DNA from: Clostridiales bacterium
GTDB taxonomy: Bacteria > Bacillota > Clostridia > Oscillospirales > Ruminococcaceae
DNA: 33,741 nt
Assembly: GCA_963654645.1 (NCBI GenBank)
Contig: CAVKCU010000324.1
Coordinates: 1-33,741, forward strand
Direction: 5' to 3'
This document shows positions 1 through 27,402 of this stretch, piece after piece; positions within the stretch are counted from its first letter, which is position 1, and the number at the start of each line of letters is the position of its first letter. Position numbers and translations under genes: made by a program. A model generated the notes under the pieces. The model saw only the letters and a program-made list of their open reading frames with translations. It did not search any database and was not told the origin of the DNA.

Positions 1-56
1 GGACGATGTTCCTTCTGGCATGGCTGCTTTTACGCCGGGAGGATGTGCGGGCATAG
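1..56 (+). CDS. 3' end of a convergent gene, probably a membrane protein (possibly an ABC permease)
   Basis: Frame from 3 reads TMFLLAWLLLRREDVRA-TAG(54-56): a hydrophobic stretch with a basic RRED tail, followed at once by a terminator hairpin. Only 17 codons are visible. Confidence 0.5.
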   Translation, partial: TMFLLAWLLLRREDVRA

Positions 57-59: not shown

Positions 60-99
60 AAAGGGGAGAGCACCTTCACGGTTGCTCTCCCCCTTTTTT
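60..99. terminator. Bidirectional intrinsic terminator closing the phage-like cluster
   Basis: aaaggggagagca-ccttcacggt-tgctctcccc followed by a T run; lies between two convergent stop codons. Confidence 0.85.
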
Positions 100-1364
100 C
101 AGCTGTTCAGCTGCTGCATGATCTTCCTGACCTCGCTGCTGGAGTATCCCTCCTTGAGCAGCTGGGTGCGGATGGCCGTATCACTGCGGCCCTGACTGCG
201 CATCCTCGCCGCGCTGTACGGCACGGTGCCGCCGCTGGAAACGCCGCTTTTGCCCACCTTCAGGCCGGTGTCACCCGTCAGGCTGCCGCGCTTCGCCGCT
301 GCATCGGCGCTGGCTTTTTCGGCAGTCCGGCTGGCCTTTTCCTGCTTGGCTGCCCACTGGCTCTTGCTCAGGTCCAGCCGCTCTGCCGCAAGGGCATTGC
401 TGACCTGCTGCTGGCGGAGTTTGTCCTGATATTCCTGCTGCGCCTGCTCGTTTTTGTACTGCTGCTGTGCCAGCTCATCCTGCCGCAGCTGCTCCTGCAT
501 TTTCTGCTTCCACGCCGTGTCGGCCCGTTCGGCTTCATAGGCGCGGTTGCCTGCATAGATGTTGTATCCGGTGTTCAGCAGGCTGCCTGCCATGCTGCCC
601 AGACCCGTGGTGCCGGTAATGGCCAGCTGGGCCGCATCGCCCAGAAGGCCCAGCACGGTCATCACATTGTTGAATCCCTGCTGGCGGCGAGCCGCCTCCT
701 GCTGTTCCTGTGCCGCGTAGTAACCGTACAGGCTGTCCAACTGGCCCAGATAATCCTGATAGCGCCCGTAATCCTGGGTGTAAGCCGTGTTGTAGGCATT
801 GCCCTTTTGTTCCAGCTGGGTGTAGTAATCCGCCAGCTCCCGCTCATACTTTTGCTGGGCATTCTGCTCCTGCCCGTTCAGCTGGTCGATCTGCTCCACC
901 AAGGCATCGCCGCCGCTCTGGTAGGTATCCAGCGCCAGCCGGTACAGCGTGGGGATGGCCTCGCTCAGTGCACCGATCTGCTGCTGGTATGCCTGCCGGG
1001 CCGCACTGGCCGCGTAGCTGGAACCATAGCCGCCGGTCAGGGCAGCGGCCTGCGCCGCCGCGTCGGCACTGGCGTTCTGGGCATTCTGGGTGTACAACTG
1101 GGCGTACTGGCGGTACAGTGGGTCGGCACCATAGCTGTAACTGAATTCCTTCCGGTCCAGCAGATCCTCCATCAGGCCGTCAATGCGGCCCTGATAGGCG
1201 CTCTCGTAATCGCCGGGGCGGTTGGCCTGCCACTGCTTCAGGTCGCTGGCCGCGTCCGTCACCTCCTGCGAGGGCCGGTACTCTGCCGAAGCCAGCGCTT
1301 TTTCCACATCCTGCCGGTTTTTCAGCCCGCCCGTGGTGTACTCCTGCTTCTTTTTCTCGCTCAT
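99..1364 (-). CDS. Putative virion internal/DNA-ejection protein, 421 aa
   Basis: Q/A/Y-rich predicted helical protein with a Gly-rich hydrophobic segment (VMTVLGLLGDAAQLAITGTTGLGSMAG). Last gene after the nozzle-like gene. RBS AAGGAGGAG; ATGA overlap with the upstream ORF. Function inferred from position and composition. Confidence 0.55.
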   Translation of the reverse strand: MSEKKKQEYTTGGLKNRQDVEKALASAEYRPSQEVTDAASDLKQWQANRPGDYESAYQGRIDGLMEDLLDRKEFSYSYGADPLYRQYAQLYTQNAQNASADAAAQAAALTGGYGSSYAASAARQAYQQQIGALSEAIPTLYRLALDTYQSGGDALVEQIDQLNGQEQNAQQKYERELADYYTQLEQKGNAYNTAYTQDYGRYQDYLGQLDSLYGYYAAQEQQEAARRQQGFNNVMTVLGLLGDAAQLAITGTTGLGSMAGSLLNTGYNIYAGNRAYEAERADTAWKQKMQEQLRQDELAQQQYKNEQAQQEYQDKLRQQQVSNALAAERLDLSKSQWAAKQEKASRTAEKASADAAAKRGSLTGDTGLKVGKSGVSSGGTVPYSAARMRSQGRSDTAIRTQLLKEGYSSSEVRKIMQQLNS

Positions 1365-1564
1365 GTCTCCTCCTTTCCCAAACTGCCGGAAAGCCTGCCC
1401 CGCAGCTCCTCCGAGAAATTCTCGGTGTCCAGATTGCAGAGCACATATTGCAATTGCTCCTGCATCTGGTACAGATAATTCCGCAGGGCCCGGGCATCCT
1501 CCGGGTCCATATTCTCACTCAGCCTGGGCAGGCCGATCTTGCCCAGGCCCGCAATGCTTGCCAT
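1361..1564 (-). CDS. Small phage-like hypothetical protein, 67 aa
   Basis: Tightly packed between neighbours (3 nt gap upstream, ATGA overlap downstream), GGAGGG RBS. Confidence 0.75.
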   Translation of the reverse strand: MASIAGLGKIGLPRLSENMDPEDARALRNYLYQMQEQLQYVLCNLDTENFSEELRGRLSGSLGKEET

Positions 1565-1567
1565 AGT

Positions 1568-3439
1568 TCATCCCTCCAGTTCCATCCAGTTTCCCTTTGC
1601 CCCGCTGAAGGTCTTGGCCAGGCTCCGCAGGGTGATCTGCCCATAGCCCCACAGCCGCAGCCGGAGCGAGGCGCACCGCCGGGGCACAAGGTGCAGATCA
1701 CAATTGCGGCGCGGGCCCTCCACCGTCAGGGCGGCAGCGGTCTCCCAGGGGCCGCCGTCATAGCTCACTTCCACAGTCACCCGGCTCCTGCAGGCGGCAT
1801 CCAGCCGCAGCGTCAGCCGGGAGAGGTACCGCTCCTCGGGGCTGTCCAGCCCCAGATCTCCGGTGGTCAGGGCAAACTCCACGCCCTGTTCCGTTCCCTC
1901 GCTTCTCTGCCCTGCCGTTTCCCGGCTGGGGTCAGCGGCCCAGAGCGCCCGGCCATCCCAGAGATAGAGCTGCCCGCCGGTGCTGGCCATCTCAAAGGAG
2001 CAGACATCCTCCTCGTGCCAGAGGCCCCGCTCGGTATCATAGACCAGCAGCCGCACCTCGTTTTCCCGGCTGACATGCAGATAATACCGGCCATCCAGCG
2101 CGCCGCCCACGGCCTGCTTCACATTGGCAAGCCGCCCGGCATCCAGCGCCGCCGACACCTTGGCCGGGATGCTGCCGTCCCACGCCATCACGCCGTCGGG
2201 CGAGAGATAGTACAGCGTCTCGTTCAGCACGCAGAGACTGCGGGCCGCGTTTCTGGCCACACCCCGGCAGCGCAGGGAGCTGAGCTGGAAATCCGAGGGC
2301 TTGGAGCCGTAGAGCTTGTGCAGGGTGTTTTCCTTGAAGAACAGCGCATAGCCCATGCAGGTGGCTGCGCCGGTAAAGGGGCCGTCGCTGCCCACGGTCA
2401 CGGCATAGCTGTCTGCCGCGATGCCCCGGTAGGAGAACCAGTTGGTGGGGTCGCCCAGCTTGCAGGCGTAGATGACATTCTCGCTGCTGGAACAGCCCCA
2501 CACCCGGTTGTCGCACTCGGTCAGGTACTCAAGGTCGGGCACCCGGCGCTCCACCTTCACACCCTCCGCCGGGAAATACTCTTCCCGCTGTGTGCCGTCC
2601 ATGCTCACCCAGACAGCACTGCTGCCATTGTGGACAAGCCTGCCGTAAAAGTGTTCGCCGCCCGGGTCAGCCCGCAGGCGCAGGGTGGTCTCGGTCACAC
2701 CGTACACGATGCGGTCGCCGTCCAGCCCGGCCCACTGGCCTGCCTGTTCAGCCCCCGTACCGGTCAGGGTCACGGTATCCCACACCCGGAACTCCGCCCC
2801 GATGCCCTCAGCGGTCACAAGGCAGTAGTCCAGGGGGATCACCGTCCAGTTGCCCGAAGCCTCGCTGTACACCTCCAGCGTGTTCTCTGCGGAATAGGGC
2901 TTGTCCGGCTCGTTCAGCTTCAGAAACAGCTGGCCGTCCTGCGGGTGTTCCGGCTCCTTCGTGCCCTTGTCCTTCACCTCGTAGGTATTCCCCGAAGCAT
3001 CACAGGGCGCAAAGCTCACGCTCAGGCTTCCCGCCTCCCAGGCAGCACCCAGCGGGGCCGCGCTGCCGTCGGCCGTATCGAACGCCACCTTGTCCGGGAA
3101 GATCAGGATCTTTGTTCCGATGCCCACCATCGTCTTGCGGCTGTCGGCCACAGCATTTTTCACGGTGACGGGCTGGGCCGGGGCATCGTCCGGGGTATAA
3201 ACCAGATCCCGCCCGCAGACGGTCAGCAGACCGTTCAGGTGGTACATCCCGTTCAGCCCGGCCAGCTCCTGCAGCCTGCGGCGGGGCAGCCGGGTGCTCA
3301 GGGCCGGGAAATCCCGGGCCGAGAAATTCATCCCCGCGCTGTACTCAGCCTCGGTGCAGCCGTAGGTCTCGTTCAGACCGCCAAAGGCCCGCAGCAGATC
3401 CCGGGTGTTCTTCACACCGGTCCGATTTGTCAGAAGCAT
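1568..3439 (-). CDS. Putative podovirus tail nozzle / packaged-DNA stabilisation protein (P22 gp10/T7 gp12-like role), 623 aa
   Basis: N-terminal FGGLN motif, beta-rich repeats (NRVWG, GDPTNW, LYYLSPDGV, LLVYD...W), position after the adaptor, RBS AAGGGAGG. Family assigned by pattern and synteny only. Confidence 0.65.
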   Translation of the reverse strand: MLLTNRTGVKNTRDLLRAFGGLNETYGCTEAEYSAGMNFSARDFPALSTRLPRRRLQELAGLNGMYHLNGLLTVCGRDLVYTPDDAPAQPVTVKNAVADSRKTMVGIGTKILIFPDKVAFDTADGSAAPLGAAWEAGSLSVSFAPCDASGNTYEVKDKGTKEPEHPQDGQLFLKLNEPDKPYSAENTLEVYSEASGNWTVIPLDYCLVTAEGIGAEFRVWDTVTLTGTGAEQAGQWAGLDGDRIVYGVTETTLRLRADPGGEHFYGRLVHNGSSAVWVSMDGTQREEYFPAEGVKVERRVPDLEYLTECDNRVWGCSSSENVIYACKLGDPTNWFSYRGIAADSYAVTVGSDGPFTGAATCMGYALFFKENTLHKLYGSKPSDFQLSSLRCRGVARNAARSLCVLNETLYYLSPDGVMAWDGSIPAKVSAALDAGRLANVKQAVGGALDGRYYLHVSRENEVRLLVYDTERGLWHEEDVCSFEMASTGGQLYLWDGRALWAADPSRETAGQRSEGTEQGVEFALTTGDLGLDSPEERYLSRLTLRLDAACRSRVTVEVSYDGGPWETAAALTVEGPRRNCDLHLVPRRCASLRLRLWGYGQITLRSLAKTFSGAKGNWMELEG

Positions 3440-3454
3440 CCACTTTCCTCCCTT

Positions 3455-3838
3455 TCACCACCGCCACTGCGCACCGCGCTTCGGCTTTGCACGCCGCCGC
3501 AGCCAGGCGCTCAGCTCGGCCAGAATGCTGTTATACCGGGCCTGCTCCCCGGCGTAACGTTCCGTCTCGCCCAGGGCAGCATCCAGCTTTGCGCAGAGGT
3601 AATGCGGGTAGAGCGCATCAAAAGGCACGGGGACCAGCAGCTCTACAGCATCGTCCAGACCTCCCTCCGCAGGCCAGGCAAGGTCTGCCCCCACCCCGGC
3701 CCGCAGCCCGCAGGCGGCAAACAGCAGGGCCCGCAGCATTCCGTCCTCCTCACAGAGCCAGCGCTGCCGGGTGCGGCTGTCCACCTTGCAGCCCGGCCGC
3801 AGTTCCTCGGCCCGTTCCAGAGCCTGTCCCACTGTCAT
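3455..3838 (-). CDS. Putative head-tail adaptor protein, 127 aa
   Basis: Start reassigned to MTVGQAL (ATG 3838, RBS GAGGGG). Helical protein with LLVPVPFDALYPHYL, located between capsid and nozzle genes. Confidence 0.6.
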   Translation of the reverse strand: MTVGQALERAEELRPGCKVDSRTRQRWLCEEDGMLRALLFAACGLRAGVGADLAWPAEGGLDDAVELLVPVPFDALYPHYLCAKLDAALGETERYAGEQARYNSILAELSAWLRRRAKPKRGAQWRW

Positions 3839-3842
3839 GCTC

Positions 3843-4055
3843 TCACCCCTCGATCCTCTCGGCGGCGGCAATGCGGGCAGCGGTGCGCTCATCCTGCACC
3901 TGGCTGTGCTCCAGCACCTCTGCCACCTCGGGCGGCACTTCCACCTCCACGCCCCGGCGGATCTTATAGCTCACGCCGTTCACGCTCACAAACAGGTCAC
4001 CTTTGTACCGGCTGTTGTCCTTGAACAGCCGGATGCGTACGTTTTTCTTGTCCAT
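3843..4055 (-). CDS. Small phage protein following the major capsid gene, 70 aa
   Basis: RBS GAAAGGA; FVSVNG...IRRGVEVEVPPEVAEVL pattern resembles small capsid-adjacent proteins. Confidence 0.7.
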   Translation of the reverse strand: MDKKNVRIRLFKDNSRYKGDLFVSVNGVSYKIRRGVEVEVPPEVAEVLEHSQVQDERTAARIAAAERIEG

Positions 4056-4144
4056 TTTTCATCCTTTCTGCCCTCTGTCGCAGGGGCACTGCCTTTTCCG
4101 CCTCGCCTGGTTTCGTTCATCCAGCAGGGCTTGCCCGGTTTGCC

Positions 4145-4190
4145 AAGGGCTCCCCTACTAGGGGAGCTGGCGCGAAGCGCCTGAGAGGTT
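4145..4190 (+). repeat. REP-like palindromic unit (single copy)
   Basis: ggctcccc-tacta-ggggagctg-gcgcgaagcgc-ctgagagg; ends at the capsid stop codon. Confidence 0.85.
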
Positions 4191-5188
4191 TAATTCGCAC
4201 TCGCATTCTCTGAGTAGCTGGATACACTCTCAATGCGCACCATGTACTGCTCCACCAGACGCTCGGCGGCGCGCATTCCCTTCCAGCCCACGGAAGCGCG
4301 CTGGTTCAGCGGGTCGTCGCCATAGCCCAGCTGCTTGACGATGTGTTCCAGGCCGCCGCCCTCCAGCTCGGTCACACCGTAGGCATGGGCACCCAGCACC
4401 AGCGTGCCGAACACGGCCAGACCGCTGGGGCAGGTGGTGTCCTTCCAGATCTTGGCCTCGCTGGTCTCCACAAAGCGGATATTGCCCAGCTTGCCGATCT
4501 CGCCGCGGTACATGGTCTCAGGGTCGGCATACTTGTGCGCCTCAATGAATTCCCTGCAGGTCTTCAGGTCATAGGCGGCATAGGGGTGGATGATGGCAAT
4601 GTAGCTGTCACCGATGGGGTCCGCGTTCATGGCACCCAGCTGCGCCGCCGCCCGGAAGAACAGCTTCGGGGTCAGGGTGCAGGTCTTGTCCAGCTCCTTG
4701 CGGCTCTTCACCTCCGTTTCGGTGCCGTCTGCATTCTGCTTGGGGGCATACAGCACATTGGTGCCGCCCGCCAGCACATCACGGGTGATGCTGTCCATGG
4801 TGCGGCCCGCCTGGCTTGCCAGCACACGGGTGGCCTGCACCACGTTGTTGTCGATGGCGGTCATCTGCAGCACGTCAGTCAGCGGGGTCCAGCCGCCATA
4901 CTGGTGCAGGTCGCTGGTGATGGTGGTCACGTTCAGGGTCTGGCCGTTGGGGGTCACACCCTCGGTCAGCGGGGTGGTGGCCTTGGGCAGGCTGTCGTAC
5001 TTGCGGAACTCGATGGTCTTGCCGCCGTTCTGGGGCACAGGATAGTAATCCGCAAACTGGTCATGCACCAGCCGGGGCTCTGCCTGGTCGATGAGGCGCT
5101 TCTCGTAGAAGGTCTTCATCTCCGGGGTCATGGTGGTGGTGGAGTTCAGGGGAGTTTCGGCAAACAGCTGAATGTTGAAGTTGTTCAT
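4190..5188 (-). CDS. Major capsid protein, N4-gp56 family, ~332 aa
   Basis: Motifs LTEGVTP, QYG, GEIG..GNIRFVET, DPLNQRASVGWK. Start reassigned to MNNFNIQLFAE (ATG 5188, AAAGGA RBS at 8 nt). The N-terminus carries a Prp-type IQLF/A motif. Confidence 0.9.
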   Translation of the reverse strand: MNNFNIQLFAETPLNSTTTMTPEMKTFYEKRLIDQAEPRLVHDQFADYYPVPQNGGKTIEFRKYDSLPKATTPLTEGVTPNGQTLNVTTITSDLHQYGGWTPLTDVLQMTAIDNNVVQATRVLASQAGRTMDSITRDVLAGGTNVLYAPKQNADGTETEVKSRKELDKTCTLTPKLFFRAAAQLGAMNADPIGDSYIAIIHPYAAYDLKTCREFIEAHKYADPETMYRGEIGKLGNIRFVETSEAKIWKDTTCPSGLAVFGTLVLGAHAYGVTELEGGGLEHIVKQLGYGDDPLNQRASVGWKGMRAAERLVEQYMVRIESVSSYSENASAN

Positions 5189-5216
5189 AGTCATTATCCT
5201 TTCTTTCATTGATTTC

Positions 5217-5280
5217 AAGCTCCCCCTTCGGGGGAGCTCCGCAAGGCGCTGGCAAAGCCAGACCGAAGCGGTGAGAGGGT
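5217..5280 (+). repeat. REP-like palindromic unit (single copy)
   Basis: agctcccc-cttcg-ggggagctc...ctggcaaagccag...gtgagaggg. Confidence 0.8.
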
Positions 5281-5286
5281 TTTCCC

Positions 5287-6234
5287 TCAAAAACTGATCT
5301 TTGCACCATGGAGCGCCTGACGCTCCAGCGCTTCCCGCTGGCTGCGGGTCATCCGGTTCACGTCCGCACCGGTCACGGCGGCGCTGCCGGGGTGGGTGCC
5401 GTTTTCAGCAGGGCGTGCCCCGCGCTGGCGGATGCGCTCCACCACGCCCTGCTCCACGGTGCGGGCAGTCTGGCGCATGGCATCCCCGTAGTGGGCCAGC
5501 CGGTAGGCATCCAGCATCCGCATCCCGGGCAGCTGCATCAGGCGGCGCATCTCGGGGTCTGCCAGCTCCTTTTGCAGGGAAAACTCCGGCACTGCCCGGC
5601 GCATCATGGCCTCCTCGGCAGCCCAGCGCCGGTGCAGGGCATCCACAGCCTGGCTTCCCGGGAAACGTTTTGGAAGCGCAGGGCGGGGCGGTTCCTGCCC
5701 TTCTTCCGCCTTGACCGGTTCGGTCTCTTTCACCTCCTTCTCCCCCTCCGGGGCGGTCGTCTCCTGCTTTGCGTCCGCTTTCTCACCGGGCTTCAGGGTA
5801 CCCGATGCCACAGCCTGCTGCTCCTGGGCCGCGCTCAGGGCAGGGGCAGCCGCTTCGCCGCCGTCAGCAAACAGCTGCAGATCCATCATCTCCTGCTTGC
5901 CCCGGGCACTCCGGTCAGCAAAGTGGACATTGTCCGGGTAGCGCTCGGCCAGCAGGGCAAAGCCCGCCTTGGCCAGCTCAAAGGCCCCCTCGACCCATGC
6001 GGTACAGGGCCGGGCGGCAGTCACCGTCAGGCGGGGGCCATCGGGCTCGTCAAAAGCATCGCTGTGGGCGTTTTCCTCGCCCGCCAGCAGGCTGACCAGT
6101 GCCTGCATCAGGGTGCTGACACCGGCACACACGATATCCTGCCCTGCCGGGGCATAGCCTGCATGGCCCGCCGCCTCCAGACGCATGGCCGGGCCGTAAG
6201 GGCCGTCCAATTCCGTATAATTCACTTTGATCAT
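5287..6234 (-). CDS. Prp-family cysteine protease fused to a putative capsid scaffold protein, 315 aa
   Basis: Start MIKVNY (ATG 6234, RBS AAGGAGG). Prp signature GHAGYAPAGQDIVCAGVSTL and LAERYPDNV, then MMDLQLFADG (5866-5889) and an acidic low-complexity/helical scaffold-like domain directly upstream of the MCP. Confidence 0.85.
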   Translation of the reverse strand: MIKVNYTELDGPYGPAMRLEAAGHAGYAPAGQDIVCAGVSTLMQALVSLLAGEENAHSDAFDEPDGPRLTVTAARPCTAWVEGAFELAKAGFALLAERYPDNVHFADRSARGKQEMMDLQLFADGGEAAAPALSAAQEQQAVASGTLKPGEKADAKQETTAPEGEKEVKETEPVKAEEGQEPPRPALPKRFPGSQAVDALHRRWAAEEAMMRRAVPEFSLQKELADPEMRRLMQLPGMRMLDAYRLAHYGDAMRQTARTVEQGVVERIRQRGARPAENGTHPGSAAVTGADVNRMTRSQREALERQALHGAKISF

Positions 6235-6255
6235 TTCTGCCTCCTTCTCATGTAA

Positions 6256-6365
6256 AACCTCTCCGTCACCTGCGGTGCCGCCTCCCCTCATAGGGGAGGC
6301 AAGCCAGCAGCAGCGTGAACTTGGCTCTCCTGTTAGGAGAGCTGGCGCAAAGTGCCGGAGAGGTT
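6256..6365. repeat. Inverted pair of REP-like units overlapping the portal 3' end
   Basis: aacctctccgtc...cctcccctcataggggagg (6256-6300) and ggctctcctgttaggagagctg...ggagaggtt (6323-6365). Confidence 0.85.
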
Positions 6366-8069
6366 CTTCGCCAATGCTCTTGTGCTCAGATTTTCCTCCG
6401 CGCCGCTCAATTTCTCGTTGAACCGCGCGATCTGCATCTGGGCCGCCGTCAGCTTCTGTGCCAGCGTGCCGTTCTGCCGCACCCTCTGGCGCACTTTTTC
6501 GATGCCCTCAAAGTCCATCATCTCCAGTGCCGCCAGGGCCGCGTCGGCATTCTGGGGTGCAAAGAAACCCAGCTGGTAGCACTCCTTCGCCGTTTCATTC
6601 TGGGAAAGCCGGCTGAAGGTGGATTTTTTCTCAGCGCTCACCACGATATCAAACACCGGTTCCCGGCTTCCCAGCTCCACGCCGCCCATCAACCCCATGG
6701 GGCGGGCACGCAGCGCTGTCCCGGAAAAGGGCACGAACTCTCTGCCTCCGGCAGGCCCGATGACACGGAACACCCGCTCCTCATCGTAAAACTGCCGCAT
6801 CAGGTCAATGATGAGGTAGCACTCCCTTGCAAAGGCCCGGTAGGCACTTTTGAGCATATCGCGGGAGAGCTTGCTGCCCGCCTCCTGCAGGGCCGCAATG
6901 GCACTTGCCGCCGTCACACCGCCTGCGGTGCCGCCCTGGGTCATATCCCGGTTTCCGCTGATCTCCTTCAGCTCCTCAATGCGGCTGTTGCGGTAGCTCA
7001 GGCTGTTCCCCTGCAAACCGGCGGTCTGCAACGGGCGGAAACTCTCGTCTCCCAGCCGCCCGGCCACATGGACGATGTCCCGGCTGAGATCCGCCAGTTC
7101 CTCCTCGTTCACGCCCGCCGTGTCGCTGAGCACATACCGCTGCTTGGATGCCAGCAGGACATTTTCATCCATGGCATGGTTCATCCGGTCGATGGCGGTC
7201 TGGCATTCCTTCATCACATCGATATAGCCAAAGCCCGCCGGGCTGTCCTCTTCCATAAACAGCGGGTCAAACACGAAGGGATATTTCCCGTGGTCGTAAA
7301 AGCCCCGCCCGGCAAGTGCCGGGTCGTTCTCGCTGGCGTAGAGCACCACACCGTTGCAGAACTTGCAGTAGTGGAGCAGGGTGCGTCCGGCCTCGTCCGG
7401 CTTTTTGTAGTACCAGTCCACCACCACGCTTTTTTCGGTGGTGTCCAGCCCGCCGTCGTGGAGAAAACGAGGCACATCCAGCACACTGGCGCTGTGGCCC
7501 TTCAGCTGGGGCCAGCGGTTTTCCAGCTGTTTTGTGTTCTCCATGCTCAGGGAGAAAAAGTGGGGCGAGGCCTGGATATCCGCCACGCCCGGCTCCCAGT
7601 AGAGCATGAGCAGATTCATGGGCCGGATGGCGATCTCTCCCACGCCGCCCCGGGCCTCCGGGTCCCAGAACACGCCCTTGACCCCGGTGCCCTGCTTGAG
7701 CTTGCGCCACCAGGTGTCGCTGTACACCTGTTCATAGTCTGCCTGCTCCAGCACCACCGGCAGGATGCTGGAAAGCACCTGTGCGGTCTGCGCATCGTCT
7801 GCCGCCCGGGGCAGAACATTGGGGGCTGGGTAATTGTCCATGGCATCGGCGTGCTTGTTGGCAATGCTGTTGAACAGCCACCCACTGGCAGGCTGGGGCT
7901 TGCCCTCCATCATGGGGTTCTGGTAGTTCTTCCAGTGTCCCATCCGGAACCACAGCTCGTTGTCCACAATGCGTTTGTCCAGCGCGGCCTTTCCGGCCTT
8001 GTATTTCTGTAAAATGGCCGTGGCTTCGGCCACCTGCTCTGTACCGATCATGTCCGTAATATTTTCCAA
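6333..8069 (-). CDS. Portal protein (podovirus/P22-like), ~578 aa
   Basis: Lies between TerL and the protease/scaffold gene, size ~580 aa, YPFV...GFGY and TAASAIAALQEAG segments. Probable TTG start at 8069 behind AAGGAGG. Confidence 0.85.
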   Translation of the reverse strand: MENITDMIGTEQVAEATAILQKYKAGKAALDKRIVDNELWFRMGHWKNYQNPMMEGKPQPASGWLFNSIANKHADAMDNYPAPNVLPRAADDAQTAQVLSSILPVVLEQADYEQVYSDTWWRKLKQGTGVKGVFWDPEARGGVGEIAIRPMNLLMLYWEPGVADIQASPHFFSLSMENTKQLENRWPQLKGHSASVLDVPRFLHDGGLDTTEKSVVVDWYYKKPDEAGRTLLHYCKFCNGVVLYASENDPALAGRGFYDHGKYPFVFDPLFMEEDSPAGFGYIDVMKECQTAIDRMNHAMDENVLLASKQRYVLSDTAGVNEEELADLSRDIVHVAGRLGDESFRPLQTAGLQGNSLSYRNSRIEELKEISGNRDMTQGGTAGGVTAASAIAALQEAGSKLSRDMLKSAYRAFARECYLIIDLMRQFYDEERVFRVIGPAGGREFVPFSGTALRARPMGLMGGVELGSREPVFDIVVSAEKKSTFSRLSQNETAKECYQLGFFAPQNADAALAALEMMDFEGIEKVRQRVRQNGTLAQKLTAAQMQIARFNEKLSGAEENLSTRALAKNLSGTLRQLS

Positions 8070-8112
8070 GTTTTCCTCCTTGCTGCCTCTCAGGCAGGTT
8101 TCGTTTTTGTCC

Positions 8113-8245
8113 AACCTCTCCGTCTTTGCTTCGCAAATCCACCTCCCCTAGTAGGGGAGGCCTTGGCAGTCCCCGCAAAGTTCCCGGTTTCGCCAGAGGC
8201 TCCCCTACTAGGGGAGCTGTCGAGCGTATGCGAGACTGAGAGGTT
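8113..8245. repeat. Inverted pair of REP-like units between terL and portal
   Basis: aacctctccgtc...ccacctcccctagtaggggagg and ggctcccctactaggggagctg...ctgagaggtt. Confidence 0.9.
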
Positions 8246-8269
8246 GTACAGAGCAGAGCCTTTCCATAG

Positions 8270-9703
8270 CTACACCCTGTAAAATCTCGCCCTCCGGTGC
8301 AGTTCCAGCGGGTCGTCCCCCACCGGAGGCTGCACAGTATGCCGGGGCGGGGAAATGGGATTTTCCATCAGCACATAGCGGCACTCGTCATAGATATGGT
8401 CCTCCTGCCGGGTGTCGATGTCCTCTACATTGCTCTCGTCATAGACCAGGTTCGGGAGGGTGCGGATGAAGTGCCTGCAGGTGCTGAACACCTGAAACAT
8501 GGGCCGCCCCTCCCCATCGAACGCCAGCCGGTAGTGGAACTGCATCTTCCCCGCCAGGCGGGTGTGGTCACCGGGGACCCAGTGGAGAAAATGGGGGCCC
8601 CGCTCCATCATGGCGGCAATGCTCTCGCCCCGGCTCTCATCAAAGATGGCAGGGTCAGCCACCCCCAGAATGGTGCGGCCCTTGAGCATCGGGTCGTTCT
8701 GCTCTGCCTCCCGGATCCGCTTTGCCTGCTCCACCGGATCGATGCGCAGGCCCTCGTTGGGGCGGCCCGTGCAGCCGTACAGCTCCTTGATGCGGTAAAG
8801 CCTGCCCTCCTCATCCGCCGCGTACCACCCCACCGAGAACGGCTTCGAGAAACCGAAATCGTACCCCCGGTAGATCTTCCAGTGTCTGGGGATGGCAAAG
8901 GGCGCAATGACATGGGTCCAGCGCTGGTCCTGATAATGCCCCGGGTCGTTCCGCCACTCGGTGAACACCTGCCCCGAAAAGCTGTCCCAGCTGCCATAGA
9001 GCAGGGCCTGCTTTTCCGCTTCGGGCAGGCTTGCCAGACTGGCAAGGTAGTCCGGGTCATTTTCCAGCAGGGCGGGGTTGTCGAACACGCTGGACGGGAT
9101 AAACACCCTTGCCCGCTCCAGCACCTTCTCGGTTCCGTCCGGCATCCGCACTGGGAACTGCTCCACAATGGGGGTGCCGGGCGGGGCAGGCGTGATGAAC
9201 CGTGCTTTCACCCAGCCGTGCCCCACACCGCCGGGATTGGTAGTGGCCCGCAGGTAGACCCGGGTGCCCGGGCCGGTAGGGCGGTTGCGGCTCATCATAT
9301 AGCTGTACTCTTCCCACTCGAAATGGGTCAGCTCATCGAACCCGATGAAGTCGAAGGCCTTGCCCTGATAATTTGTGCGATCCTTGGTGTACTGCATGGA
9401 ACCAAAGTAGATCTTGGCCCCGCTGGGGAACACCCACACATGGCTGGTGGCGTTGTACTGCGCCGTAGGAAAAGCCCGCTTGTAGTAGGCCATGCTCTTG
9501 TCCACCAGATCACTGAGCTGGGGGTAGGTCTTGCGCAGGATGAGCCCCCGATAGTGGGGGATGTGCACCTGCCGCAGGGCCTCGATCACCAGCGCGTCAC
9601 TCTTGCCGCCGCCTGCCGCGCCCCCGTACAGGGCTTCCGGTTCCGGGCGGCGCATGAACTCCGCCTGCCGGGGCTGGGGCCGCCATACGATCTCTGCATT
9701 CAT
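8270..9703 (-). CDS. terL: Terminase large subunit, 477 aa
   Basis: Walker A YGGAAGGGKS, Walker B FIGFDE, motif ATTNPGGVGHGW, nuclease motifs GYDFG and DHIYDECRY. Start MNAEIVW (ATG 9703, GGAGG RBS, ATGA overlap). Confidence 0.95.
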   Translation of the reverse strand: MNAEIVWRPQPRQAEFMRRPEPEALYGGAAGGGKSDALVIEALRQVHIPHYRGLILRKTYPQLSDLVDKSMAYYKRAFPTAQYNATSHVWVFPSGAKIYFGSMQYTKDRTNYQGKAFDFIGFDELTHFEWEEYSYMMSRNRPTGPGTRVYLRATTNPGGVGHGWVKARFITPAPPGTPIVEQFPVRMPDGTEKVLERARVFIPSSVFDNPALLENDPDYLASLASLPEAEKQALLYGSWDSFSGQVFTEWRNDPGHYQDQRWTHVIAPFAIPRHWKIYRGYDFGFSKPFSVGWYAADEEGRLYRIKELYGCTGRPNEGLRIDPVEQAKRIREAEQNDPMLKGRTILGVADPAIFDESRGESIAAMMERGPHFLHWVPGDHTRLAGKMQFHYRLAFDGEGRPMFQVFSTCRHFIRTLPNLVYDESNVEDIDTRQEDHIYDECRYVLMENPISPPRHTVQPPVGDDPLELHRRARFYRV

Positions 9704-9984
9704 ACGTCCTCCACGGCTGGCAGAAGCACCACGCCGCACGCCCGGGCCTCGGCATCCGCGCCCTGATCGTTCAGGGTCTTGGCCACCGCGGCCAGATCCT
9801 TCAGCACCGCCGTAGCCTCCTTGAGCCCCTTCATCAGGGCGGGGTCAGAGCCATCGCCACGCTGGACCTTCTGCCGGACGTTCAGTTCCTTGACCTCCTG
9901 CGCCAGCATAGTGCTCAAGGTGTCGGTGGCCTTGTGCAGGCTGACAAGGCTCTTGTCCCTGCCCGGCTGTTTTGCTTGCGCCAT
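9700..9984 (-). CDS. Putative terminase small subunit, 94 aa
   Basis: First gene of the cluster, ATGA-coupled to terL. Two predicted helices plus a C-terminal GVVLLPAV strand. Confidence 0.65.
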   Translation of the reverse strand: MAQAKQPGRDKSLVSLHKATDTLSTMLAQEVKELNVRQKVQRGDGSDPALMKGLKEATAVLKDLAAVAKTLNDQGADAEARACGVVLLPAVEDV

Positions 9985-10021: not shown

Positions 10022-10030
10022 AGGATACCA
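10022..10030 (-). promoter_or_regulatory. Possible extended -10 promoter of the phage-like cluster
   Basis: TGgTATCCT about 40 nt upstream of the terS ATG; no well-spaced -35. Confidence 0.3.
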
Positions 10031-10216
10031 GCTTTTCGTCTCCTGCAACAGCGCGCACTTTCACAGGGCCGTTTTGTACTTTTCGTATCACAGAATCCAA
10101 TCCGTATAAAATAATCTTTCATTTTTTATCGCTGTATCGCACCGTGCAGAAATCTCCGTTTTTCTCCCGGATTTTCCATGCGCAAGTACATCAGGATCGT
10201 GAAGCGCCTTTTGCGC

Positions 10217-10271
10217 AAAAAAGCAGGCACTCCGCCCGCCCCGTCCGGGGCAAAGGCAGAGTGCCTGCTTT
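10217..10271 (-). terminator. Intrinsic terminator of the M16 peptidase gene, insulating the cluster
   Basis: aaagcaggcactc...gagtgcctgcttt stem with a 6-T tail on the minus strand. Confidence 0.85.
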
Positions 10272-10297: not shown

Positions 10298-13051
10298 TTA
10301 CAGGGTCTCGATGCGGTCAAACAGCTGCTTGCCTGCTTCCACAGCGTCCTTGCTGCCAAAGGCTACACGGGTGGCGTTTGCCATCCGGTCTGCAAGGTCT
10401 GCGGCCTGTGCCCGGACCGTTTCAGCTGTCACGCTGCACATGGCCTTGCGGTCTGCGGCCAGCATGGCATCGGTGATGCCGCAGAAGTACCGGCGGTCCA
10501 GCTCCTTGGCCTCAGCGTTGGGCTTTTTGGGCGAATCCATCTCGGACACCGCGCCCACGATAAACTCGGTCAGGTCTTTTTCGGTGTACTCCCGGCCTGC
10601 CAGCACCTCGGGGGCCTTGGCAAAGGTCTCGTAGCTCTCAGTCAGGTGGGGGTCACGGTAGGTGTACAGTCCCTCGGTCTGGGCACGGGTCAGCATTCCG
10701 GTGCCGTAAGCGCCGCCCACCTCACGGATGTTGTGCCACAGGTATTCGTAGCTCATAATGCGGGCCAGCACCCGGCGGTCGGCCTGCCGCTCCATGGGCC
10801 AGGTCAGGATATCATAGTTCACGCCGCCGTCAATGATAAAGGCCTCGTTCACGGGGGCCGTCAGCACCTCTGTGTAGGGCTTGGCAGCGGTGCGGCCCTG
10901 GGCTGCAAAGGCACTGCCGGGCAGCAGGGCACGCAGCTTTGCCAGCGCTTCCTCGCTGCCATGCAGGCTGACGGTCAGGGCTGCATGGTTCAGCACTTTT
11001 TCCCGCACCGCCTCCAGCTTTTTGCCCATGGCGGCCCAGTCGGCCTGTTCCAGCAGGCCGCACAGGAAGTGGTACCCGGTCACGCCGCTGCACCGCTCAC
11101 TCAGGGCATACTCCACTGAGTAGTGGGCGGCGGCACGCACGGCAGCGTACTGGTTGCCCTGCCGGATGAACTGCTGCTCCATGTTCAGCTTCTGCTGGCT
11201 CAGCACCCGGGCAAAGGCTTCCTCGGCCTTGGGGCCGGTCAGGCAGGTCTTGTAGAGGTACTCACTGCCCAGCGCAATGGCCTTGTCCAGATTCCGCTCC
11301 AACAGGCTCATGTTCCAGGTGAGCTTTGCGTGGCAGGGGCTGCCCTCCTGCCGCCCGGTCCAGAAGCTGATGCAGGCCATGCTGTTGCCCAGCCAGGTGG
11401 CGCGCTGGGTCTGCAGCTCCCGGGCAGTGTGCTCCGGGGTATCCAGCTCGTCCAGAATATCGGTCAGCAGGTCAAGATACTGCACCTCTTCCGGGGTGCA
11501 CTCGCCCAGGTCGTAGTAGAAATTCAGATACAGGCTGCCCTTGGAGGGGTGGTGCAGCAGCTCCGCACCGGCCAGCGGTTCCACCGTACCGGCAGCGCTC
11601 CTGTCACCATCGCCCAGGTCGGCCACCGTCAGCGGATGGTCCAGCACCAGCTTGCCGTCGCTGCGGGCGGGGGCAGCATCCTCTTCGTCCTTCTTGGGCA
11701 GGGTCGGGGTCTGGATGACCTGCACCGGCTCGGCCAGCAGCAGATCCTTCAGCAGGTCATTGAACCAGCCGGTGGAGAGCTTCTCCCGCAGGGAAGCAAA
11801 CAGTTTGTCGGTGTGGAGCAGCAGGGCCGGGTCGCCGGTGTGGAGCCAGCCGGTGGCGGCATAGATGGCATCCAGCACACCGTCGGGCAGGCTGCCCGGG
11901 CGCTCCAGGGAGGCAAACTCCATGGCGTTCAGGCTGGCCAGCAGCAGCTCCTCGGGGATGCCCCCTGCCAGCAGGTCGGTCACAGCCTGTTTCACGCCAG
12001 CTGCAAATTTGGGGGCAGTCTCTGCGGTGGCCCCCCGCAGCACCAGCTCCAGCGTGGGCTGCAGGGTGCTGTCGTCAAAGCCAATGTCGATATCCGCACC
12101 CAGCTTCTGCTCCAGCAAAGCTGCCTTCAGCGGGGACTGGTTTGTGCCCAGCAGGGCATCCAGCAGGATCTCCACGCCCAGCTGGCGCTCCCGGTCAGCA
12201 AACGCGCCGGTGTACCAGGCCAGTGCACACTGTACCTGATCCGGCTCGGGATTCTCGGTGTAGTACGGGATGTGCACACGCACACCGTTCTGCTGGTCCT
12301 GCACCGTCAGCCGGGGGCGGCTGGTGCCCTTGGGCATCCTGCTCAGGTAGTGCTCATCCAGAAACGCCAGCTTCTCGGCCATATCCATCTTGCCGTACAG
12401 GGTGATGCAGCAGTTGTCGGCACTGTAATGACGGCGGTACACCCGCTGGTATTTTTCATAGGTCAGGGCCGGGATGGAGGCCGGGTCGCCGCCGGACACA
12501 AAGCCGTAGGCCGTATCCGGGAACATGGCCCGTTCCAGCGCGTTCTGCAGCTGCGCGTCCGGGGAGGCCAGCGCACCCTGCATCTCATTGTAGACCACAC
12601 CGCTCACCGTGCCGTCCGCGTCCCGGTGCCAGCCCTCCTGCTCGAACACGGCCTTGTCCACCATGGCCAGCGGGCAGAACACGGCGTTCAGGTACACATC
12701 CATCAGGTTCCTGAAGTCGGTCTCGTTGGGGGTGGCAAAGGGATACACCGTCTTGTCCGGGAAGGTCATGGCGTTCAGGAAGGAAGCCATGCTGCTCTTG
12801 AGCAGCTGCAAAAAAGGCGAGGTCACAGGGTACTTCTCGCTGCCCGCCAGCACCGAGTGCTCCAGAATGTGGAACACACCGGTGTCATCGGAGGGGAAGG
12901 TGCCGAAGCCGATGCCGAACGCCTTGTTGTTGTCCTCGTTCTCCACCAGCAGGACAGCGGCCCCGCTCACATCGTGGTTCAGAATCGTCAGCACACCGTG
13001 CTGCTCCGGGCAGTCCTCGCGGCGCACCAGCGTATAACCGGGATAGTTCAT
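10298..13051 (-). CDS. Insulinase-family (M16C, PreP/Cym1-like) Zn metallopeptidase, 917 aa
   Basis: HILEHSVLAGS (HxxEH), FLNAMTFPDKTVYP, GVVYNEMQG, IREVGGAYG, YRDP; RBS AAAGGAG. Confidence 0.95.
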   Translation of the reverse strand: MNYPGYTLVRREDCPEQHGVLTILNHDVSGAAVLLVENEDNNKAFGIGFGTFPSDDTGVFHILEHSVLAGSEKYPVTSPFLQLLKSSMASFLNAMTFPDKTVYPFATPNETDFRNLMDVYLNAVFCPLAMVDKAVFEQEGWHRDADGTVSGVVYNEMQGALASPDAQLQNALERAMFPDTAYGFVSGGDPASIPALTYEKYQRVYRRHYSADNCCITLYGKMDMAEKLAFLDEHYLSRMPKGTSRPRLTVQDQQNGVRVHIPYYTENPEPDQVQCALAWYTGAFADRERQLGVEILLDALLGTNQSPLKAALLEQKLGADIDIGFDDSTLQPTLELVLRGATAETAPKFAAGVKQAVTDLLAGGIPEELLLASLNAMEFASLERPGSLPDGVLDAIYAATGWLHTGDPALLLHTDKLFASLREKLSTGWFNDLLKDLLLAEPVQVIQTPTLPKKDEEDAAPARSDGKLVLDHPLTVADLGDGDRSAAGTVEPLAGAELLHHPSKGSLYLNFYYDLGECTPEEVQYLDLLTDILDELDTPEHTARELQTQRATWLGNSMACISFWTGRQEGSPCHAKLTWNMSLLERNLDKAIALGSEYLYKTCLTGPKAEEAFARVLSQQKLNMEQQFIRQGNQYAAVRAAAHYSVEYALSERCSGVTGYHFLCGLLEQADWAAMGKKLEAVREKVLNHAALTVSLHGSEEALAKLRALLPGSAFAAQGRTAAKPYTEVLTAPVNEAFIIDGGVNYDILTWPMERQADRRVLARIMSYEYLWHNIREVGGAYGTGMLTRAQTEGLYTYRDPHLTESYETFAKAPEVLAGREYTEKDLTEFIVGAVSEMDSPKKPNAEAKELDRRYFCGITDAMLAADRKAMCSVTAETVRAQAADLADRMANATRVAFGSKDAVEAGKQLFDRIETL

Positions 13052-13095
13052 GTTGTTTCTCCTTTGGGTCATATTTTTTCAAAGTGTTTGGCCCT

Positions 13096-15545: not shown

Positions 15546-15549
15546 AGCC

Positions 15550-15578
15550 TTGACAAGCCGCTGAAAATTGACTATACT
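15550..15578 (+). promoter_or_regulatory. Sigma-A promoter of putative antitoxin RNA 1
   Basis: TTGACA-17-TATACT; the same promoter/leader recurs on the minus strand at 26814-26842 and 27827-27855. Confidence 0.85.
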
Positions 15579-15584
15579 ACAAAT

Positions 15585-15684
15585 AGAAAAGGTGCTGACC
15601 TCTATCGGTCAGCTTCCCTTCCCGCGAATCAGATCAAAAGAGATTGACTGTCAGGTTTCGGAGCTGAGGCAGTCAATCTTTTTT
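15585..15684 (+). ncRNA. Putative type I antitoxin RNA 1 (~100 nt, ends approximate)
   Basis: Runs from a consensus promoter to the terminator agattgactgtc...ggcagtcaatct-ttttt; convergent with and overlapping the 3' end of the small ORF. Confidence 0.7.
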
Positions 15685-15810
15685 GTTATCATCGTTTTTC
15701 CTCTGAGAGATCTTATCCATGACCTCAAAGGTCAATCGGACTACATCAACCATCAAACTCAGCAAGCCAAGAATGAAGGTAAGCAGGGCCAGAGTCTCTA
15801 ACAGATTCAT
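15673..15810 (-). CDS. Putative type I toxin peptide, 45 aa (not in the ORF track)
   Basis: MNLLETLALLTFILGLLSLMVDVVRLTFEVMDKISQRKNDDNKKD; RBS AAGGGAGG; hydrophobic N-terminus and charged tail. Confidence 0.8.
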   Translation of the reverse strand: MNLLETLALLTFILGLLSLMVDVVRLTFEVMDKISQRKNDDNKKD

Positions 15811-15976
15811 TCGACATCCCTCCCTTCGCCCGCAGGCTCCGGGAAGTTTCCTTCAAAAAAGTTCCGTTCCCGGAATCCCGCTTCATTCCATGTAATAGAA
15901 TTCGGCGTTCCGGGCAGGAAAGCATGACCACCAATGATACAGGCAGCACCTTTACCGCCGTTCTGGCGGTATTTTT

Positions 15977-25710: not shown

Positions 25711-25890
25711 AGATTTTTTGCCCCTGTTTTGTTCAGAATTCATTACTTTCAACAACGACACAGCCGCCCGATGCAGGGGTCAACTGCACCGGGCGGCCGC
25801 GTGTCAAAAGGAGGATCTCTTCCCGTCAGGGCGTGGTGTCTCTGACGGGCGCCAAGGATAAAAAGAGAGTATTGGTAGGAAATGTCAAAT

Positions 25891-26466
25891 TCAGGCCGCC
25901 ACGGCAAGGCGGAAGATCGGCGTGCCGCTGTGGAACAGGCGCAGATACACTTTGGTGCACTTGTTCAATTGGGCAAACAGGCGCTCGGCGGCATCGCGGT
26001 CGCCGTAGGCCTTCCAGCAGCCGCAGCAGGTGAAGTTGCGGCCCTGATTTTCGATGAAGCCCACCACATCGGTGAGCGGATAGCCCAGAAATACGCCGAT
26101 CTCATGGGGAAACTCTGCTTCGCAGCACAACCGCCGCGCCATCTGCCGCAGCAGCGGTTCGCAGTCGCCATCTTCCGAGAGGGTATATCCCTCCTGTGCC
26201 AGAAACGCACGGACATTTTCGTCCGTCAGCACTTCGCGTAGACGGCTCTCGCGGTACACATAGACCAGATACCAGTGGCTGCGGACGCAGCCCTTCAGCA
26301 CCCGGACCCGGAGGCCCTTCTCACCCAGCCGCACATTCCAGCCGCGCACCCGCTCCGCGAGGTCTTTGCAGTCGCTCGTCTCGTAGCGAAACAGACCGGC
26401 GGCTTTCAGCCCGGCCAACACAGGCGAGCATTGTTCGATCATTACCGTCTCAAAATTACGCTCCAT
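25891..26466 (-). CDS. DUF3793 family protein
   Basis: CSPVLAGLK, FPHEIGVFLGYP..DV.GFI, WKAY; start MERNF behind GGAGG. Confidence 0.88.
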   Translation of the reverse strand: MERNFETVMIEQCSPVLAGLKAAGLFRYETSDCKDLAERVRGWNVRLGEKGLRVRVLKGCVRSHWYLVYVYRESRLREVLTDENVRAFLAQEGYTLSEDGDCEPLLRQMARRLCCEAEFPHEIGVFLGYPLTDVVGFIENQGRNFTCCGCWKAYGDRDAAERLFAQLNKCTKVYLRLFHSGTPIFRLAVAA

Positions 26467-26545
26467 GGCCGGTTTCCTCCGTTGCTTTGCTTTCCGATAG
26501 GGTGCCCGCATCGGGTCTTTCTATGCAGACGATGCAGAGTTTCAC

Positions 26546-26670
26546 GGTTAGAATATTCTAACCAAAAATTCAAAAAGAACGCGGCTCGTCATTCTGCCGC
26601 TTCGTTCCGTGTTTTGGTTAGTCATTTCTAACGTGGCATTATCTTACCACAGCTTCGGGGGTGGTGTCAA
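26546..26670 (-). promoter_or_regulatory. DUF3793 promoter with two GTTAG-N6-CTAAC operators
   Basis: TTGACA-18-TAAGAT (26641-26670) with a TG extension; ggttagaatattctaacc (26546-63, perfect palindrome) and gttagtcatttctaac (26617-32). Confidence 0.7.
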
Positions 26671-26682
26671 GGGGAAATATTC

Positions 26683-26717
26683 ATTTCGTTGAAAAGCGTC
26701 AAATTTCATGTTATAGT
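26683..26717 (+). repeat. 35-bp direct repeat containing a sigma-A promoter, copy 1
   Basis: atttcgTTGAAAagcgtcaaatttcatgtTATAGT, identical to 27403-27437. Confidence 0.92.
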
Positions 26718-26722
26718 ATAGC

Positions 26723-26807
26723 AAAACCGCCACCTCGGCCAAGGTGACGGTTTTCAGAAACCCAATTCCTTAAAAGAGGTCAACCGCTTGTCGTAGCGCC
26801 TTTTTCT
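26723..26807 (-). ncRNA. Putative orphan antitoxin-like sRNA (~85 nt, ends approximate)
   Basis: TTGACA-17-TATTCT promoter (26814-26842) and leader like the other two antitoxins; terminator at 26723-26754; no toxin ORF opposite. Confidence 0.6.
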
Positions 26808-26867
26808 GTTTGTAGAATAGTCAATTTTTCGTCTTTTGTCAAGGACCGAACCCGTAAGGAGGCACCG

Positions 26868-27389
26868 ATGTATTTTACACCGTTCGAAACTGCCCGGCTT
26901 CGTCTTCGCCCGCAGGAAGCAAAAGACGCCGGATTTGCTCTTTGTATGTGGGGCGACCCCATCACTGGAAAATATCTGACAGACCCTGCCCTCGACGATA
27001 TCGACGACCTGAATAAATATATGGAGATGCTGCGGCGTCTGAGTGACAGCACCGGTTGCTACTATTTTATTGCCGAAGACAAAAGTACTCACCAGCCAAT
27101 CGGCACTTGCTGCGCCGTCATCAAGGACAACGGCCACTGCTGGGATATCGGCTATTGCATCCATCCGACCTGTTGGCGGAAAGGGTACGCAAAGGAAATG
27201 GTTGGTGCCGTCCTTGAATTCGGCGCTCGCAACGGGGTCAAAACCTTCTTGGCCGATGTTGCCGCCGTCAACGAAGGCTCCCGCGGTGTTATGCGCTCAC
27301 TTGGGTTCACTCCCACTGAAAATGGCACATTCCGCCGCAGTGGAATCAAAACCGAATATAAAAATCTGACCTTCAAAAAAGTGCTGTAA
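26868..27389 (+). CDS. GNAT N-acetyltransferase, RimJ/RimL type
   Basis: ETARLRLRP, DIGYCIHPTCWRKGYAKE, N.GSRGVMRSLGF; RBS AAGGAGG. Confidence 0.92.
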   Translation: MYFTPFETARLRLRPQEAKDAGFALCMWGDPITGKYLTDPALDDIDDLNKYMEMLRRLSDSTGCYYFIAEDKSTHQPIGTCCAVIKDNGHCWDIGYCIHPTCWRKGYAKEMVGAVLEFGARNGVKTFLADVAAVNEGSRGVMRSLGFTPTENGTFRRSGIKTEYKNLTFKKVL

Positions 27390-27402
27390 ATCGCTTTTTC
27401 AA

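Follow-up and report, generated by a model that had tools for sequence, protein, structure and literature searches.

We conclude with high confidence that the minus-strand block at positions 99–9984 of contig CAVKCU010000324.1 (assembly GCA_963654645.1; "the window" below is the whole stretch that was analysed, 33,741 nucleotides) is operon I of FpGTA, a gene transfer agent (GTA) of Faecalibacterium, and that it supplies a domesticated podovirus with its head, packaging machinery and nozzle; we also propose a mode of regulation for it. The operon itself is a described locus rather than a new one: FpGTA I was reported as ten open reading frames (ORFs) over 10.5 kb in 12 out of 12 genomes (Borodovich et al., Nat Commun 2026, PMC12946183; bioRxiv 10.1101/2024.11.15.623857). 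The original prediction, made from the DNA letters alone, had called the block a domesticated, short-tailed GTA-like element with an N4-gp56 capsid and with its fibre, lysis and regulator genes elsewhere; the first part matches FpGTA operon I gene for gene and the second matches the published arrangement, but the locus was not recognised as one already in print. New, as far as the literature is searchable, is a model that we favour with some reserve, in which FpGTA would consist of three loci under the control of a CI repressor; the three would have come apart from a single family of temperate podoviruses, still in circulation within the genus.

The published particles of strain ATCC 27766 are about 40 nm across, hold about 8.4–9 kb of host DNA and are released at late lysis. 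The accompanying proteomics table lists, from RCH50852 to RCH50844, the large terminase (TerL), portal, Prp, N4-gp56 capsid, an unknown protein, adaptor, nozzle (8eap) and a TolA-annotated protein, with GyrA and GyrB also in the particle proteome among many contaminants (PMC12946183). The gene order in the window is that of these accessions. Our capsid search of relatives, from which the best 80 of 126 loci were used, returned three loci from strains named as FpGTA carriers (L062, which is ATCC 27768, L051 and L060); all have the ten genes in the same order, which identifies the window's block as FpGTA I. Identity over the ten genes is 57–91% to ATCC 27768 and 57–95% when the other two are included, and in a TerL tree the window groups with all three, away from the prophage clade. 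The block is thus very probably orthologous to FpGTA operon I, with which it shares ten ORFs in about 10 kb, a small terminase (TerS) without a DNA-binding domain, TerL, portal, Prp, N4-gp56 capsid, adaptor, nozzle and TolA-annotated protein, the presence elsewhere of a second locus with fibre and lysis genes, the lack of replication genes, and Faecalibacterium as host. The ATCC 27768 copy differs in belonging to another species-level lineage and in having other flanks than the window. In the phage collection, the closest matches are unannotated faecal contigs of 6–12 kb, and named phages reach only about 33%. Four faecal 'Bacteriophage sp.' records of that size (MT836159, MT836324, MT837852 and MT837972) encode capsids 90–99% identical and are probably this chromosomal operon.

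The features of the block and its edges are listed here in window coordinates.

1–56, plus strand: 3′ end of a host ABC-2 permease gene convergent with the operon (the frame stays open up to a stop codon at 56)
60–98, no strand: GC-rich hairpin between A and T runs, likely a shared terminator (read by eye)
99–1364, minus: 421-aa internal or ejection-like virion protein (position of RCH50844; 61% to the ATCC 27768 copy)
1361–1564, minus: 67-aa conserved protein (75% to the ATCC 27768 copy)
1568–3439, minus: podovirus-type tail nozzle, 623 aa (predicted fold and Foldseek)
3455–3838, minus: head-tail adaptor, 127 aa (phrog_12105; position of RCH50847, 'adaptor')
3843–4055, minus: 70-aa conserved protein (phrog_15239; 90% to the ATCC 27768 copy)
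4190–5209, minus: N4-gp56 capsid (TIGR04387, E 4.1e-95; L27-like motif conserved)
5287–6234, minus: Prp cysteine protease (His24, Cys36; PF04327, 1.4e-12) fused to scaffold (C-terminus phrog_13908)
5866–5883, minus: conserved L27-like cleavage motif inside the Prp-scaffold gene
6333–8069, minus: P22-like portal (PF16510, 6.7e-26; phrog_156)
8270–9703, minus: large terminase, TerL (PF03237; Terminase_6N, 5.7e-16; phrog_979)
9700–9984, minus: 94-aa putative small terminase, TerS, without a helix-turn-helix (homology weak)
4131–4190, 5213–5253, 6280–6365 and 8115–8240, no strand: palindromic host repeats (repeat search)
10022–10030, minus: extended −10-like element of the operon promoter
10049–10062, minus: 14-nt box in place of a −35, predicted activator site
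10070–10110, minus: a further pair of phased TAC repeats, upstream of the box
10220–10271, no strand: inverted repeat, a terminator-like site 3′ of the M16 gene, at the right boundary (repeat and terminator scans)
10298–13072, minus: host M16 peptidase, a flank outside the element (family match)

In an open reading frame reading of the window, ten intact, co-oriented ORFs fill 99–9984 and span 9,886 bp, as had been predicted. The portal gene has a TTG start at 8069 with a ribosome-binding site in front, its first ATG being at 8051. The 623-aa protein, modelled with 42 homologues (predicted local distance difference test score, pLDDT, 89), matches the Pa223, T7 and P22 8eap tails by Foldseek with E values of 2e-15 to 1e-11; the predicted structure is a podovirus tail nozzle fold, in agreement with the listing of RCH50846 as a nozzle (PDB 8eap; PMC12946183). 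The adaptor, 70-aa, 67-aa, 421-aa and TerS proteins have no informative family, and their labels come from position and the published table. RCH50848, the counterpart of the 70-aa protein, was found in particles, and RCH50844, that of the 421-aa protein, was the third most abundant protein in them (PMC12946183); atlas neighbours of the 421-aa protein carry an automatic TolA-like name, as RCH50844 does, and we infer an ejection role for it. The 94-aa protein matched neither Pfam nor PHROG. A profile of the proteins at this position, compared with 10 targets, matched a prophage TerS-position protein (E 7e-5) and a Terminase_2 protein (E 0.0017) but not the TerS proteins of the closest prophages, and profile-profile comparison with the latter was not significant (probability 0.4%), leaving the TerS identity weakly supported.

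No integrase, repressor, replication, lysis or fibre family was found among the 28 window proteins scanned, no repeats bracket the operon among the 20 largest of at least 60 repeat families, and no tRNA was found in the window; the absence of phage lifestyle genes and of evident att repeats claimed at the outset is borne out to that extent. Two other early claims survive in part. Tight coupling of the genes applies to five out of nine junctions (−4 to 15 bp) but not to the remaining four (77–218 bp), which hold palindromic repeats that occur across the bin, as expected of the host-type repeats predicted there (two of them gave 25 and 36 blast matches on 20 and 23 contigs). Base composition resembles the flanks in GC content at third codon positions (0.75–0.84 for operon genes, 0.78–0.84 for five host genes) and departs from them overall, at 63% GC in the operon as against 59% in the remaining window.

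Both predicted boundaries are recognisable. Only 56 bp of the left gene lie in the window; in the complete genome G003, which is 97.6% identical over the window's first 17.6 kb, it is a full ABC2_membrane_4 gene and convergent with the operon, as proposed. The hairpin at 60–98 that would terminate both is visible by eye but is missing from the terminator scan list. On the right, the M16 peptidase and the terminator-like inverted repeat lie where they had been placed, and judging from accession numbers a peptidase M16 (RCH50858) is near operon I in ATCC 27766 too. Fixed synteny with the flanks was not found: the M16 gene is directly upstream in only 13 out of 80 loci, and the flanks vary across the genus. 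An IS110 transposase lies directly left of the operon in G003 (L081:15580–16863).

The capsid gene was found in 83 out of 91 Faecalibacterium genomes, including 41 of the 41 that are at least 90% complete, and in 25 of 300 sampled genomes of the family, a distribution among high-quality genomes that is not patchy. Our selection set comprised 59 operon copies (57 loci plus the window and G003, some near-duplicates); each gene was recovered in 54–59 of them, the remainder being lost at contig ends, and a single partial gene was the only hint of the pseudogenisation that the original prediction had suggested looking for. Median dN/dS, the ratio of nonsynonymous to synonymous divergence, calculated from non-independent pairs with dS of 0.05–0.6, is 0.08–0.14 for seven genes and 0.25–0.40 for the TerS, 67-aa and 421-aa genes, compared with 0.15–0.20 for host control genes. 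These values are well below 1, and all ten operon genes are under purifying selection. Between the window and G003, dS is 0.05–0.13 for the operon and 0.07–0.09 for host genes.

These results bear on whether the block is instead a prophage remnant in decay or a capsid-forming satellite that depends on a helper, an idea that is largely refuted and that we consider very improbable. Capsid-forming satellites have their own integrase and primase or replication gene and are patchily present, features that the window operon lacks, and the integrase, immunity, replication and lysis genes in cis of a temperate prophage are lacking as well. Close prophage relatives do exist (capsid 63–73% identical), and the L071 bin holds a hybrid of operon and prophage halves; set against these are an intact operon in every good genome, purifying selection, dS values like those of host genes, the lack of any integrase, primase or att sign, and the published finding that other prophage proteins did not account for the ATCC 27766 particles (PMC12946183).

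Agreement with host phylogeny, another check proposed at the outset, is uneven. Over 18 loci, the Spearman correlation of distances with those of the flanking host M16 gene is 0.90 for the portal, 0.64 for TerL and for a host control, and 0.20 for the major capsid protein (MCP); the capsid thus tracks the host gene poorly, and its gene may have been exchanged between species or be saturated. The capsid gene (4190–5209) also has a dS to ATCC 27768 of 0.35, compared with 0.65–1.07 for its neighbours, which reflects either exchange between species or codon constraint. The GTA-like copies do not all form one clade in the TerL and MCP trees (2 and 3 label changes; both trees are unrooted, the MCP tree is a quick one, and L072, whose contig ends, is wrongly labelled prophage), and there may have been one or two domestications. 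A divergent operon type (L064, L066, L068, L069, L070; L133, L134, L219–L221) has Prp and scaffold as separate genes and extra genes before the last gene (one of them DUF859); upstream of its terS are repeated GTAAC/GTTAC words and no box of the kind described below, which suggests another regulator. At L071:5600–16100, operon-type genes from TerS to Prp are joined to prophage-type genes from capsid to ejection at the M16 site, in either a recombinant or a misassembled bin.

The second capsid copies, 63–73% identical, sit in full prophages of Faecalibacterium. Those of G032, G016 and G012 carry the operon's module together with an integrase beside yqfD, a replication initiator, helix-turn-helix (HTH) repressors (seen in two of them), fibre, lysin, holin and a giant LPD3/PBECR5 protein, and their TerS-position protein, of 236–282 aa, has an HTH. 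The yqfD prophages resemble FpGTA in the gene order from TerL to nozzle, in the capsid (68–73%), in a Prp-scaffold fusion with the same motifs and in a late-activator gene before terS; they differ in keeping the integrase, repressor, replication initiator and HTH-bearing TerS, and in having a longer portal and scaffold, two ejection-type genes and a polyvalent protein of 2,200–2,800+ aa. Early genes and the giant protein of the three prophages are missing from the operon, as is the HTH part of their TerS: TerS is 88–117 aa long in the 59 operon copies versus 234–312 aa and HTH-bearing in the closest prophages. Prophage loci beside yqfD are L084–L091, L074, L079 and L063, and the G032 prophage also carries a SLATT/DUF4231 gene. 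We did not find full temperate prophages of the FpGTA family in Faecalibacterium described in print.

The Prp histidine and cysteine are conserved in nearly all copies compared, as is an LQLF/A-type motif that occurs at two places, in the stretch that separates protease from scaffold and at the N-terminus of the capsid. The His-x11-Cys spacing and the L27-like LQLF/A motifs in scaffold and capsid are as in phage 80alpha, for which passages of PMC9405229 give the L27 motif definition, the dyad spacing of Prp (MEROPS C108) and the processing of scaffold and capsid; in FpGTA, by contrast, the protease is element-encoded and fused to the scaffold. Prp probably cleaves scaffold and capsid at these motifs.

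In 55 out of 60 regions upstream of terS, a 14-nt box takes the place of a −35 in front of an extended −10-like element, with an 18-nt spacer in 50 out of 50 unique cases, and two further TAC repeats, in phase, peak at −21 and −49 (38 of the 54 unique regions). Of five genomes tested, four have the box as a single exact site and one has it with a single mismatch. By eye, the same layout precedes the fibre gene of a second locus (locus II) and the prophage terS genes. A matrix trained on operon I placed its top match within 20 kb at the fibre promoter in three out of five locus II regions and at terS in two out of eight prophage regions; with a strict two-box matrix, no site came up at either locus II or the prophages, and only the relaxed matrix found them. 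A degenerate pattern gave 45 matches, compared with 7 for a reversed control; the on-target matches are circular because the pattern was built from those promoters, and 15 matches were off target, 14 of which were fetched. The off-target boxes precede M15 endolysin, lone helicase-like and DnaD-like genes and, in one clade, gyrB. Genes of the AAA_25 helicase-like (L214, L215, L218) and DnaD-like (L216, L217) kinds stand alone among host genes with a high-scoring box upstream and are possibly recruited replication aids; as core components they were rejected, with close copies in 3/41 and 4/41 genomes respectively and a box at two of four DnaD-like genes. In G073 (L177–L181), the promoter and about 70 bp upstream have been copied to five other sites before unrelated genes. 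Control of terS by LexA (GAAC-N4-GTTC) was also rejected: the window has no site, and 59 loci have six scattered one-mismatch sites.

A candidate for the factor that reads the box comes from the prophages, where the gene before terS encodes a 93–110-aa protein with weak matches to phage transcription activators (phrog_248, E 1.5e-4 to 1e-2). Outside prophages, a profile of this protein matches exactly one copy per genome in 36 out of 41 good genomes; this copy is intact in 24 out of 24. This orphan follows a Cro-like gene beside trmO in all six contexts read, five of which also have a CI-like HTH/S24 gene in the opposite orientation, and CI adjoins the activator locus in 31 of the 36 genomes (in G003 the cassette is at C1:2671827–2673154, L165:7822–9158; orthologues L141–L170). 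The CI gene has a dN/dS of 0.14, with cleavage and catalytic motifs invariant in 19/19. A consensus sigmaA promoter precedes cro in 24/24 loci, and a 17-bp palindrome, GTTGA-N7-TCAAC, lies over its −35 in 18 out of 19 loci with CI and in none of five without; we think it likely that CI binds this palindrome. The 97-aa activator is predicted with a pLDDT of 93 and aligns with sigmaE region 4 at Z 8.4 and with phage Q at Z 8.2 (91 of 97 residues). The five genomes without it carry the divergent operon with split Prp and scaffold, and the box is absent in the three that could be tested. On balance, we think that the activator reads the conserved box at the terS and locus II promoters. Five genomes (G008, G015, G019, G033, G073) have cro, activator and consensus promoter without an adjacent CI or operator, three of them also without a fibre match. 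At L222 (G348:C15:30614–32430), in another genus, an activator homologue and a divergent CI-like gene lie among host genes, and the capsid gene is present.

The cassette has counterparts in known systems. The Ltr activators RinA, ArpU and LtrA–C of Gram-positive phages are encoded before terS, whose promoters they switch on under the control of cI (PMC3753634, in the parts that treat them); like them, the Faecalibacterium protein is small, has a sigma4-like C-terminal fold, precedes terS in the prophages and goes with repeats upstream of the terS promoter, whereas its orphan copy is far from terS and its family matches are weak. In CcGTA, RogA represses gafYZ, and GafY and GafZ activate and antiterminate (PMC11150451, likewise). 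The likeness to CcGTA and to RcGTA (GafA), which are siphovirus-derived and alphaproteobacterial, is one of regulatory logic: a repressor acts on a dedicated activator, which acts on the structural cluster and on scattered accessory promoters with a degenerate −35. What differs in Faecalibacterium is a seemingly intact phage cI/cro pair that would directly control a single small activator. The text and eight supplements of PMC12946183 (figures excluded) name no promoter, repressor or activator for FpGTA. We did not find 'FpGTA' beyond that paper in a search that fell short of most subscription journals, nor the conserved terS box or the cI-cro-activator cassette in print, and bioRxiv 10.64898/2026.07.08.737213 does not mention Faecalibacterium in its accessible part. 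In A2-165, mitomycin failed to induce Lagaffe or Mushu, in an assay that covered those phages' genomes only (PMC5883640).

Locus II was found by its authors in five strains only, with divergent forms suspected (PMC12946183, text). In ATCC 27768, its fibre is 33–36%, its M15 protein 58–60% and its holin 65–70% identical to those of the prophages. A fibre homologue occurs in 33 out of 41 high-quality genomes, the one in G016 being prophage-borne and the one in G026 weak, and in all five contexts read the locus II homologue lies beside glycogen genes. That of G003 is reduced to a short fibre, a GH25 protein in place of M15, and a holin, and an M15 family search missed it for that reason; a BppU_N family search for locus II gave no match in five genomes.

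Several observations count against this reading of the block and its control. Membership in FpGTA I relies on the named carrier strains and the published table; particles were seen for ATCC 27766, and the window strain is known from genes alone. Five RNA runs from two studies hold the block, but in the three from which contigs were examined these cover most of it at a depth below that of flanking host genes, which is uninformative on transcription and was not used. The regulation is proposed from descent and co-occurrence. The activator's Foldseek matches are not significant (E>1), its Z of about 8 is near the level that the tool calls ambiguous, and activator and Cro have a dN/dS of about 0.45. 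The five activator-less genomes are probably one lineage, which makes the co-absence about one event, and five others keep cro and activator without CI, which means that CI is not the sole brake. As for the box, it falls below the cut-off at the L094 fibre promoter, ranks third in L128 and was not found by the operon I matrix in six of eight prophage regions; genome-wide, a score of at least 9 with the right spacing gave 4 matches, compared with 1–7 at wrong spacings; and it also precedes gyrB in one clade and occurs in five scattered copies in G073.

Some of these points fit a different arrangement: the cI-cro-activator cassette would be a domesticated remnant in its own right, with different targets, and a host factor would read the terS box. 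The boxes before gyrB and lone replication-type genes, the low scores of several promoters in prophages and at locus II, the near-single event behind the co-absence and the fast evolution of the activator all speak for it. We consider it doubtful, given that the closest relatives of the activator are directly upstream of terS in prophages of the FpGTA family, that such genes have the cI-controlled role described above in Gram-positive phages (PMC3753634), that none of 620 sampled genes of the window's source bin has a box scoring at least 5 (the sample missed gyrB), and that in G348, from the one other genus with an activator match, the capsid gene is present too and a CI-like gene adjoins the activator homologue.

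The three-locus model that we favour would work as follows. The loci would be the head and packaging operon, the fibre and lysis genes next to the glycogen genes, and, adjoining trmO, a master switch in which CI, with an intact S24 self-cleavage domain, would bind the palindrome over the −35 of the strong cro-activator promoter. RecA-dependent or stochastic loss of CI would turn on the 97-aa sigma4/Q-like activator, which, via the conserved box, would fire the terS promoter and the fibre, lysin and holin genes of locus II and, in some lineages, the recruited lone genes (endolysin, helicase-like, DnaD-like, gyrB). Prp would then trim scaffold and capsid at the L27-like motifs; TerL, paired with a TerS that lacks its DNA-binding head, would fill heads non-specifically with host DNA, in pieces shorter than the 9.9-kb operon itself; and holin and endolysin would release the particles.

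Whether such particles donate genes is a further question, one that the authors of FpGTA leave open, with no transfer demonstrated in their text (PMC12946183). That silence, the absence from the operon of the prophages' giant ejection-type protein and the reduction or apparent lack of locus II in several genomes (8/41 without a fibre match) would suit particles that package host DNA but act like PBSX, as killers of neighbours, decoys or devices for lysis or extracellular DNA. We regard this as unlikely: the terminase, portal, nozzle and 421-aa protein are all kept under purifying selection, and a contractile killing tail is a different thing from a podovirus nozzle.

The source of the window limits which genome can be read with it. 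Its bin (G000) is a mixture of two Faecalibacterium genomes in which the window contig (C324) belongs to the minority; contigs C137, C41 and C56 hold a second copy of operon I and of flanking host genes, 93–97% like ATCC 27768. Since the bin is mixed, G003 was taken as the stand-in for the window's organism, and other loci found in the bin are not assignable to that organism. Identity to G003 drops from 94–99% to about 79% at 25747–32588, and 15548–15967 is an insert that matches elsewhere in inverted orientation; these are either a recombined segment or signs of a chimeric contig.

As the operon equals the published FpGTA I, it adds little by itself, and the value lies in the candidate switch. 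The text of PMC12946183 gives no way to turn FpGTA particles on, and a named repressor, operator, activator and target box are handles with which to produce particles at will and test transfer. Its living prophage relatives make FpGTA one of the few cases where the stages of GTA domestication lie open to direct comparison. With a CI-controlled switch, DNA damage would cause a dominant commensal of the human gut to package its chromosome, and, if the model is true, DNA-damaging antibiotics or inflammation could drive lysis and gene exchange in Faecalibacterium.

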